A DNA stretch of 8,108 nucleotides from a virus. Its lineage: Duplodnaviria > Heunggongvirae > Uroviricota > Caudoviricetes. The notes below the pieces were generated by a model. That model saw only the letters and a list, made by a program, of their open reading frames with translations. It made no database searches and was not told where the DNA came from. Where the stretch lies: IMG/VR virus record IMGVR_UViG_2690316086_000017. The stretch is one strand, 5' to 3'. Positions 5,112 through 5,542 of this stretch are shown piece by piece. Numbering within the stretch: position 1 is the stretch's first letter; every line of letters begins with the position of its first letter. Both the position numbers and the translations under genes were made by a program.

Positions 5112-5271
5112 GTTGGCAGCCTCCTCAGTGTGGTTAAGATAACCGCCACCGGAAACGCCAATTTCGCTGGTGGCGGACTGTACAGGGTTGGCGTAACCGG
5201 ACACTGAAGAAACCGGCGCGGATTGCTCCGCCCCCGTACAGCCCACCATTGATAAGGTGTGACTATGCGGC

Positions 5272-5294
5272 ACAAAAAAACACGCGGGGCGCGT
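5272..5294 (-). terminator. intrinsic terminator inside the early-operon leader (minus strand)
   Basis: Minus-strand RNA ACACGCG-CCC-CGCGUGU (7-bp GC-rich stem, 3-nt loop) followed by seven U (plus A-run 5272-5278). Confidence 0.55.
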
Positions 5295-5542
5295 GTTATG
5301 CGCTTCAGTTTTGCCCAGGACGCCAATCCCGGCACCCGTTTTATGAGGTGCGCGGGAATCATAGCTATTTTCGACACTGGCGATCAACTGGTTTTTTTCT
5401 CCGATATTCAGGGCCAGAAAACGCCACACAAAGGCCGTTTGTGTGTGTACAAGGTGTGGTATATGATTTACGGCAACCATAACGGCTCCTAGTTTACGTT
5501 GTTGGTTAGACGCCCCGTATGTGTTCCCAGCACTGCGGGGCG

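Follow-up and report, generated by a model that had tools for sequence, protein, structure and literature searches.

A P1/P4-type RNA immunity cassette in a phage-satellite island of Escherichia coli contains a conserved hairpin that shares a strand with C4 RNA

Introduction

The DNA analyzed here, an 8,108-nt stretch from the IMG/VR virus record IMGVR_UViG_2690316086_000017 (the whole of which we call the window), carries two short inverted repeats, A and B, that a first-pass annotation of the letters alone described as GC-rich hairpins in a leader on either side of a terminator, with attenuator-like alternative structures or small-RNA processing as possible roles. We report that the window is a phage-satellite island of O26-type E. 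coli and that its minus strand from 5617 to 4920 is an RNA immunity cassette of the type found in phages P1 and P4, centered on the antisense RNA C4. The system is well known, and this cassette is a further example of it. Within it, hairpin A is a real and conserved part that shares a strand with C4. Two different things are called P1 in this field; we write phage P1 for the virus and stem P1 for the helix that closes C4 (helix 1:2).

Results

A complete C4 cassette on the minus strand

The window is 100% identical to sequences in E. coli O26:H11, O103, and related genomes. The island lies at tRNA-Pro beside yejM and, in the RefSeq record, contains genes for an integrase, a RepA helicase, a small terminase, and a capsid protein. 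All of the relevant features of the cassette are on the minus strand; in order, they are an upstream promoter-like site, a leader hairpin, the start of an Eta-like open reading frame (ORF), an inner promoter-like site, an isrK/seqA-like RNA, C4 (CI in P4), the target sites a2 and b2, and an Icd/Kil-like gene. The elements at its core are:

5275-5351, minus strand: isrK / P4 seqA-like RNA (Rfam RF01394, 66.0 bits against a gathering score of 50)
5166-5253, minus strand: C4 / P4 CI-type antisense RNA (Rfam RF01695, 77.6 bits against a gathering score of 45, E = 2.3e-14, full-length match)
5143-5176, minus strand: hairpin A (the 2:3 helix), with outer stem CCGCCACC/GGUGGCGG, inner stem GAAA/UUUC, and a2 in the loop
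5120-5131, minus strand: b2 target ACACUGAGGAGG, which pairs with b' (UUUCUUCAGUGU) using G-U pairs and contains the Shine-Dalgarno sequence (SD) GGAGG
4920-5111, minus strand: Icd/Kil-like gene, 63 aa (NF033153; 'host cell division inhibitor Icd-like protein' in RefSeq), the first gene under the cassette

In a published comparison, isrK corresponds to P4 seqA and C4 to the P4 CI RNA (PMC3632133), and the layout of C4 loci as a1 b1, c4, a2 b2 has been summarized (PMC2864571 Additional file 1; PMC5320573). C4 is excised by RNase P, which cleaves at a GGW motif at the 5' end of stem P1 (PMC5320573), together with 3' trimming, and it represses the downstream genes (PMC5320573, citing Hartmann et al. 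1995). The C4 RNA of the window folds at -46.9 kcal/mol (z = -5.18 against shuffled sequences) and carries sequence hallmarks of this processing: its predicted 5' end (5247) reads GGU, and the stem is followed by the tail ACC (5171-5169). By analogy with the annotated 77-nt C4 of phage P1, the mature RNA is predicted to span roughly 5247-5169.

The recognition sites are present as well. The a' sequence (ACGCCAA, 5194-5188) is unpaired in C4 and complementary both to a1 (UUGGCGU, 5326-5320), which lies in a hairpin loop within the isrK match, and to a2 (UUGGCGU, 5161-5155), which lies in the loop of hairpin A. The b' loop of C4 (UUUCUUCAGUGU, 5212-5201) is complementary to b1 (ACUGAAG, 5309-5303), also within the isrK match, and to b2, whose GGAGG is the SD of the Icd/Kil-like gene, 8 nt 5' of the ATG at 5111. 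Together, these data place in one cassette a covariance-model match to C4, a' and b' sequences complementary to a2 and b2 over the ribosome-binding site (RBS), and an upstream a1/b1 copy. A match to the c4-a1b1 family (RF03163) at 5364-5312 scores 21.2 bits, below the gathering score of 46.7.

Across loci, a' and a2 change together: the pair is UCGCCAA/UUGGCGA in a distant group of IMG/VR loci, UGUCAA/UUGACAG in phage P1 (where a2 is annotated), UUCUCAC/GUGAGAA in P4, and GUGGUAA/UUACCAC in Escherichia albertii. Likewise, b' and b2 vary together. The C4 cassette of E. albertii NBRC 107761, with a' GUGGUAA and a2 UUACCAC, stands before an Icd-like gene of the window's second type; this locus is a change of immunity specificity in which the architecture is retained.

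Hairpin A is maintained by compensatory change

Both inverted repeats are where the first-pass annotation had put them, on the minus-strand transcript and on either side of a terminator, which our scan finds at 5297-5279 with its U run inside the isrK match. Read on the plus strand, repeat A consists of CCGCCACC (5143-5150) and GGTGGCGG (5169-5176), a perfect 8-bp repeat with an 18-nt loop; repeat B consists of CACACAAA (5425-5432) and TTTGTGTG (5438-5445), also a perfect 8 bp, with a 5-nt loop. To set a chance level, we counted 8-bp perfect inverted repeats with loops of ≤20 nt in dinucleotide shuffles of the window. Shuffled windows contain 2.5 +/- 2.0 of them, so a single such repeat is unremarkable; the window has 12, and there are four in 5100-5600, where 0.18 are expected.

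Folded alone as RNA, hairpin A reaches -18.9 kcal/mol (z = -2.86), a value equaled by three of 200 shuffles. Its 5' arm (5176-5169) joins the final five bases of stem P1 to the ACC tail, and, by comparison with the annotated C4 of phage P1, the arm ends at the exact 3' end of mature C4. The 3' arm comes shortly after a2, which is therefore held in the loop, mirroring the position of a1 in the loop of the isrK/c4-a1b1 hairpin.

We surveyed 120 IMG/VR loci with the C4 core pattern (52 distinct sequences) and found that hairpin A recurs among them with different arms, including CCGCCACC/GGUGGCGG, CCAUCACC/GGUGAUGG, GCUACCACC/GGUGGUAGC, and CCGCUCUCCCCGU/ACGAGGGGAGCGG. In an alignment of 41 distinct C4 loci, phage P1 included, 92.2% of the cells of hairpin A pair, compared to 67.2 +/- 1.6% in shuffled controls (reached in 0 of 500 shuffles); in slid registers the figure is 34-53%. 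Covariation scores 0.636 versus 0.225, both sides change in 10 of the 12 pairs, and the inner stem is paired in 97.6% of cells. The accepted fold of C4 itself, scored on the same alignment, is 96.2% paired with a score of 0.585; the support for hairpin A matches that for the C4 fold. The P4-type elements and the E. albertii locus retain the hairpin with wholly different arms:

Phage P1: arms CCUGC-C-ACC / GGU-A-GCAGG, loop UUGACAG (the annotated a2)
Phage P4: arms GCUAUCGCC / GGCGAUAGC, loop GUGAGAA
P4 sublineage: arms GUCACCACC / GGUGGUGAC, loop GUGAGAA
E. albertii: arms CCACCGCC / GGCGGUGG, loop UUACCAC

These results show that hairpin A is a real, conserved part of the immunity cassette that shares a strand with C4. 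No Rfam family covers this a2 hairpin, and outside the primary papers on P1 and P4 we found only a passing remark on it, in a motif survey from 2010 (PMC2864571).

Helices that exclude one another

Given that one strand cannot sit in stem P1 and in hairpin A at the same time, hairpin A excludes the base of stem P1. Two further pairings involve the remaining strands:

5127-5150, minus strand: 3:4 hairpin, formed by UAACC.CACU and the 3' arm of hairpin A (GGUG..GGUUA); it overlaps the 5' end of b2
5256-5266, minus strand: region 0, AUAGUCACACC, seen in folds as a second possible partner of the 5' strand of stem P1

We compared the pairing of these strands with their own partners to that with permuted partners. 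For 3:4, own partners average -8.27 kcal/mol against -6.04 +/- 0.30 after permutation (0 of 1000), and phage P1 has a 9-bp version of this hairpin that covers part of the annotated b2. For 0:1, the corresponding values are -10.15 and -9.28 +/- 0.30 (1 of 1000). Because stem P1 and hairpin A share a strand, and because the 3' arm of hairpin A has an alternative partner, we read the transcript as having two exclusive states. As in an attenuator, there are overlapping, exclusive helices with comparative evidence (1:2, 2:3, and 3:4, with weak evidence for 0:1). None of the alternative helices looks like a terminator, however, as most lineages lack a U tract after 2:3 or 3:4; for this reason we do not take 3:4 for a terminator, unlike in trp-type attenuators. 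The output is more likely to be exposure of the RBS and target together with release of C4.

Two other pairings were considered and set aside. In a longer fold, a2 and the adjoining UUUCC pair with GGAGGCUGCCA, hiding the SD; this pairing is absent from the distant loci, and its sides are nearly invariant in the enterobacterial ones, which puts it beyond covariation testing. Hairpin A might also be imagined as a helix between two molecules, mature C4 and the mRNA, but the order of the strands would call for a pseudoknot-like arrangement, and we found nothing in support of it.

Hairpin B lies in coding sequence

5425-5445, minus strand: hairpin B, CACACAAA-CGGCC-UUUGUGUG, which corresponds to codons 12-19, (H)TQTAFVW, of an Icd-like 5' segment

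Alone as RNA, hairpin B folds at -8.6 kcal/mol (z = -0.62), and 46 of 200 shuffles do equally well. There are five distinct variants that form the stem, all with an identical stem, and one variant (Val to Met) that breaks a pair; no compensatory change occurs among them. The hairpin is not found in the window's second icd (HSQTAFLW), in P1 icd, P4 kil, or E. albertii icd, or in other genes 3' of C4. Its subfamily is confined to E. coli and Shigella: a search for more divergent carriers yielded two loci in a genome scan at the species level and, in a second scan of viruses, contigs that were already known, which leaves no material for a covariation test of hairpin B. Comparing 49 distinct genes, we found a nearly invariant 35-nt block from +34 to +69 relative to the ATG, in which 3 of 12 third-codon sites vary, compared to 38 of 49 elsewhere in the gene (p = 0.001). 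A lenient terminator scan picks up the hairpin (eight pairs, three of them GC, with tail GCGTTTTCTG), the U run beginning 4 nt past the stem.

We also asked about hairpin B as a target of C4 and rejected the idea. Only UGGCGU (6 nt, in Trp-Arg codons) matches a', and P1 icd has the same codons without matching the a' of phage P1, making the match a coincidence. Nothing was found that links hairpins A and B.

The two repeats thus part company with respect to the first-pass annotation. Its proposal of alternative, attenuator-like structures holds for A, which is exclusive with the base of the C4 stem, and is not supported for B, which has neither an energy signal nor covariation. The suggested connection to small-RNA processing is borne out for A by its overlap with C4, an RNA known to be excised (RF01695, 77.6 bits), but not for B, which is coding sequence. 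The checks that it had named, structure prediction (z = -2.86 for A, -0.62 for B) and covariation in relatives (compensatory changes for A, none for B), divide in the same way. The description as GC-rich does not fit B, where three of the eight stem pairs are GC, and neither hairpin sits in a purely non-coding leader, as the stretch is also an ORF. That reading had passed over the isrK and C4 genes, the identity of the A loop as the a2 site of C4, and the open frame that runs throughout.

Reading frames, promoters, and mosaic structure

4920-5480, minus strand: Eta-like ORF, 186 aa, with ATG at 5480 and SD AGGAG at 5490-5486, in frame through isrK, C4, and the Icd/Kil-like ORF
5589-5617, minus strand: upstream promoter-like site, sigma-70-like TTGACA-17-TACTAT (consensus scan, 10 of 12 matches), a candidate placed like the upstream left-operon promoter of P4
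5358-5387, minus strand: inner promoter-like site TTGATC-18-TATGAT (consensus scan, 9 of 12 matches), a candidate
5510-5543, minus strand: leader hairpin ACGCCCCG...CGGGGCGT, 34 nt, seen in leader folds and lying just 5' of the SD/ATG at 5490-5478
5569-5582 and 5601-5612, unstranded: two copies of the palindrome GGTAATTACC(AT), read from the sequence and from the inverted-repeat list

The 186-aa product matches Phage_ASH (PF10554) over residues 40-133 (E = 3.3e-17) and phage_ICD_like (NF033153) over residues 137-180 (E = 1.3e-16), and P4 Eta has the identical two-part make-up. Pfam searches with short pieces of the region gave no matches; Phage_ASH is seen only with the full 186-aa frame. The window has a long in-frame ORF of the sort that characterizes the nested kil/eta genes of P4-type elements. 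Forti et al. (1999) are said to have found that P4 kil is the end of the longer eta, that eta is translated only from the upstream promoter, and that this translation makes transcription insensitive to immunity; in P4, translation reportedly prevents termination. The two promoter-like sites of the window (5617-5589 and 5387-5358), candidates identified by their hexamers, are in the places expected for such a kil/eta scheme. The predicted start from the inner site, at about 5351, is the first base of the isrK match, and the P4 hexamers have the same geometry.

The minus-strand frame is open even further upstream, from 6149 to 4920 (409 codons); in RefSeq, pseudogenes are recorded at 6149-5634 ('Icd-like') and 5480-5142 ('ash family protein'). 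The 409-codon frame crosses the divergent promoter region and runs antisense to a ribbon-helix-helix gene. This divergent gene (57 aa, 5611-5784, plus strand), which has no RefSeq annotation, gives a weak match to YlcI/YnfO (NF041551, E = 0.0014, under the cut-off). The copies of GGTAATTACC(AT), about 31 bp apart, flank the upstream minus-strand promoter-like site on both sides, and the second copy overlaps the ATG of the divergent gene. Their sequence and placement suggest that they are probably operators, as of an autoregulated repressor.

The first ~28 codons of the Eta-like ORF are the 5' end of a different Icd-like gene, with homology ending near 5397. That other gene is intact in the islands of O157:H7, strain 042, and others, where C4 is not present. 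The joint at about 5397 gives the locus a mosaic appearance: up to the joint, 5560-5397 matches the intact Icd-like gene of O157:H7-type islands (its leader plus the first 28 codons) at 97.6% identity, and 3' of the joint come the inner promoter-like site, isrK, C4, and the second icd module, so that the fused start codon now heads the Eta-like frame. The two Icd-like N-termini, at 5425-5480 (…LVHTQTAFVWRF…) and 5060-5111 (…LVHSQTAFLWRF…), are paralogous in DNA as well, sharing CCTTGTACA...CAAAC.GCCTTT.T.TGGCG.TTT, from which we infer a partial tandem duplication of the icd 5' end within the cassette.

Among 28 distinct leaders of Icd-like genes, the leader hairpin changes in a compensating manner in both its lower stem (ACGCCCCG/CGGGGCGU or AAGCCCCG/CGGGGCUU) and its upper stem (GUG/CAC, ACUGU/GCAGU, or AGUG/CACU). 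It is followed by CUAACCA on the 3' side, and it also occurs in islands without C4.

Among the 120 IMG/VR loci, the genes found under C4 cassettes vary widely, from Icd/Kil-like and Rha/antirepressor-like to unrelated proteins. The enterobacterial C4 loci have the RBS, start codon, and first ~5 codons in common (GGAGGCUGCCAUCAUGGCUAC, Met-Ala-Thr-...), and to judge from these sequences it looks as if the target site and the translation start move as one module.

Discussion

Two exclusive states of one transcript

The best explanation of these results, to which we give a probability of roughly 60%, is a P1/P4-type cassette with a conserved hairpin A that puts its transcript into one of two exclusive states, together with a hairpin B that, most probably, is a palindrome of the coding sequence in the Icd-like 5' segment. 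The model builds on what we observe directly, namely the matches to RNA families, the complementary sites, the strand held in common, covariation in helices 1:2 and 2:3, and the permutation support for 3:4. Which state forms when, and what this would mean for processing and translation, may be pictured as follows.

In State I, stem P1 would be closed and the 3:4 hairpin formed; RNase P would find what it requires, a tRNA-like stem and an ACC tail that is free, and C4 would be released. In State II, hairpin A would form while the 5' strand of stem P1 is taken by the upstream segment (0:1). The base of stem P1 would then be sequestered, and in the enterobacterial versions the ACC tail as well, such that no C4 is cut from the molecule; a2 would be displayed in the loop, b2 and the RBS would be freed, and the molecule would serve as target or messenger. 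State II could be favored by pairing in cis of a1/b1 with a'/b', or by ribosomes on the Eta-like ORF.

One could go further and see here an undescribed four-segment RNA switch (0:1, 1:2, 2:3, and 3:4) common to phage P1, P4, the enterobacterial satellites, and the distant prophage-like loci in IMG/VR, an idea we consider tentative, with the odds clearly against it. The 3' strand of the C4 closing stem would be traded to the downstream arm, leaving each transcript either an RNase P substrate or a messenger and target, and the choice would be set by pairing in cis with the upstream a1/b1 decoy or by ribosomes in the Eta-like frame. Should competition between pairings indeed control the release of C4 or the translation of icd/kil, we would understand how a single transcript can give rise to its repressor and also be that repressor's target, a question left open by the work on P1 and P4 and touched on by the IsrK study.

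A number of points weigh against the two-state model. The mechanism is proposed from sequence comparison and predicted folds. For 0:1 the effect is small. Pairing of the ACC tail is confined to the enterobacterial versions; in the distant group the tail lies in an internal loop, which means that hiding of the tail is not universal. In folds that run from C4 to the start codon, the full stem P1 (State I) beats hairpin A in 36 of 41 lineages, with a median gap of 4.5 kcal/mol and a gap of 10 in the window. When the upstream segment is included and the RNA ends at the 3' arm, the two states are nearly isoenergetic in the window (-56.9 versus -57.0) and the median gap is 2.1, but these differences are noisy, many of them being 0, because the constraints limit the direction of pairing and do not force it. 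With isrK included, the minimum-energy and centroid folds of the window both show hairpin A, a1:a', and b1:b'; the whole-leader minimum-energy folds of phage P1 and P4 lack hairpin A, the former being the plain C4 fold and the latter having a different cis pairing. Given this disagreement among the window, phage P1, and P4, we discarded whole-leader folds as a guide to the state in either direction, and we take thermodynamic prediction to be silent on when or whether hairpin A forms. With the energies this ambiguous, we rested the reality of hairpin A on covariation. The reading of hairpin B as a coding palindrome has a point against it too: variation is absent from all eight silent sites of the stem and of the U-rich codons that come next, yet both silent sites in the loop vary, a pattern that chance alone does not predict.

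Other explanations

Could hairpin A simply present its target? In that case a2 would be held in a loop for fast docking of C4 in trans, and the overlap with C4 would have no role in switching or processing. Structured targets are usual for antisense RNAs (Weinberg et al. 2010, PMC2864571), a1 and a2 are both in hairpin loops, and the inner stem beside a2, paired in 97.6% of cells, covaries strongly. The 5' arm, however, belongs to mature C4, so that hairpin A is impossible once C4 has been cut out and must open 5 bp of stem P1 on the uncut molecule. In addition, the outer stem follows the 3' strand of stem P1 in every lineage examined, and the 3' arm has a second covarying partner, which looks like selection on competition and not on display alone. 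We consider presentation without switching unlikely. A role as a terminator or 3'-end-forming signal for C4 is less probable still, although the 3' half of stem P1 was reported to overlap a predicted terminator hairpin in 'several cases' (Weinberg et al. 2010, PMC2864571 Additional file 1), the end of the 5' arm coincides exactly with the 3' end of mature C4 as annotated in phage P1, and UUAUCUU follows the 3' arm in the window. That tail is not conserved: a U tract after the 3' arm is missing in most relatives (for example, GGUGGUGGAAGUUAUCC and CGAGGGGAGCGGUUCAACAAC). The consensus scan does not call hairpin A, with its 18-nt loop, as a terminator, and the downstream gene needs read-through.

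It would be more surprising yet if the complementarity were a functionless by-product of the resemblance between the 3' arm and the 5' strand of stem P1 (GGUGG...). Both GGUGGCGG and the stem P1 strand GGUGGGCU do contain GGUGG, and permuted partners already pair fairly well in the 0:1 test. But where the 5' strand of stem P1 tolerates changes in the 3' strand through G-U pairs, as it often does, the downstream arm changes and keeps Watson-Crick pairing, which argues against a mere by-product; CCAUCACC/GGUGAUGG and CCGCCACC/GGUGGCGG are examples, both opposite an unchanged GGUGGG. Arms unlike GGUGG are equally complementary (GCUAUCGCC/GGCGAUAGC and CCGCUCUCCCCGU/ACGAGGGGAGCGG), and slid registers pair at only 34-53%. 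For hairpin B, the alternative to a coding palindrome is a functional nucleic-acid element within the Icd-like 5' coding region, possibly a translation-sensitive pause or weak terminator (the stem plus GGCGUUUUCUGG) or an RNA-stability or binding site. The near-invariant 35-nt block, with fixed silent sites in the stem and U-rich codons, and the terminator-like result of the lenient scan speak for such an element; the weak fold, the lack of compensatory change, the U run 4 nt off the stem, the Val to Met variant that breaks a pair, and the absence of the hairpin from other Icd/Kil subfamilies speak against it. Low divergence or a shared recombination block could also account for the invariance in a subfamily found only in E. 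coli and Shigella. We regard a functional element as the less likely reading, though not a remote one, and prefer the coding palindrome.

For annotation, what was a leader with stray hairpins becomes a complete RNA immunity module of the P4/P1 type, carried by a satellite island. Its carriers are Shiga-toxin-associated E. coli lineages such as O26 and O103, in which RefSeq records only 'ash family' and 'Icd-like' pseudogenes. With hairpin A, the a2 site stands in a stem-loop that borrows a strand of C4 and that has been kept by compensatory change across very different cassettes, both textbook systems included.

Comparison with known systems

The c4-a1b1 motif (RF03163; Weinberg et al. 2010) is likewise a covarying hairpin with a C4 target in its loop, displaying a1 as hairpin A displays a2; unlike hairpin A, it lies 5' of C4 and shares no strand with it. 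Trp-type 1:2/2:3/3:4 attenuators resemble the cassette in their successive, exclusive pairings, and here too a ribosome upstream could decide between them. They differ in that the window's cassette has no short leader peptide with regulatory codons, and its 1:2 helix is the stem of a trans-acting RNA.

The Gifsy-1 locus of Salmonella (IsrK / STnc1160 / orf45-anrP; PMC4825925) also has an isrK-family RNA with a leaky terminator 5' of a processed C4-like RNA. Its read-through RNA has been shown experimentally to adopt two alternative structures, in which the middle of IsrK pairs downstream and sets translation on or off (PMC4825925); the a1:a' and b1:b' pairings predicted in cis for the window are the same kind of contact. 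Gifsy-1 differs in having a translated ORF, orf45, that overlaps the C4-like region itself and in having an antirepressor as its output; the helices drawn are not the 2:3/3:4 pair, and the window is known from sequence alone.

In the immI region of phages P1 and P7 (a1 b1, c4, a2 b2, icd, ant), C4 is similarly cut from the leader of the operon that it represses. The a2/b2 sites of phage P1 overlap the RBS of icd, and the equivalent of hairpin A and the 3:4 hairpin are both present. On the other hand, phage P1 has no isrK-type terminator RNA that scores in Rfam, with a1/b1 annotated only as sites; its downstream cargo is the antirepressor Ant, and its promoters are under the C1 repressor.

P4 differs from the window in its a' sequence (UUCUCAC instead of ACGCCAA), in an isrK-C4 spacer that is shorter in the window, in the start of the long ORF, which in the window comes from a different Icd-like gene, and in its island genes: P4 has alpha, sid, delta, and psu where the window's island has a RepA helicase, a small terminase, and a capsid gene. 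The immunity region nevertheless follows the same Rfam order, with isrK (seqA) and its terminator and then C4 (CI). The promoter-like hexamers occupy the same position relative to the isrK match, the long ORF joins Phage_ASH to ICD_like, and P4 has its own hairpin A (GCUAUCGCC/GGCGAUAGC), the loop of which holds GUGAGAA, the core of seqC.

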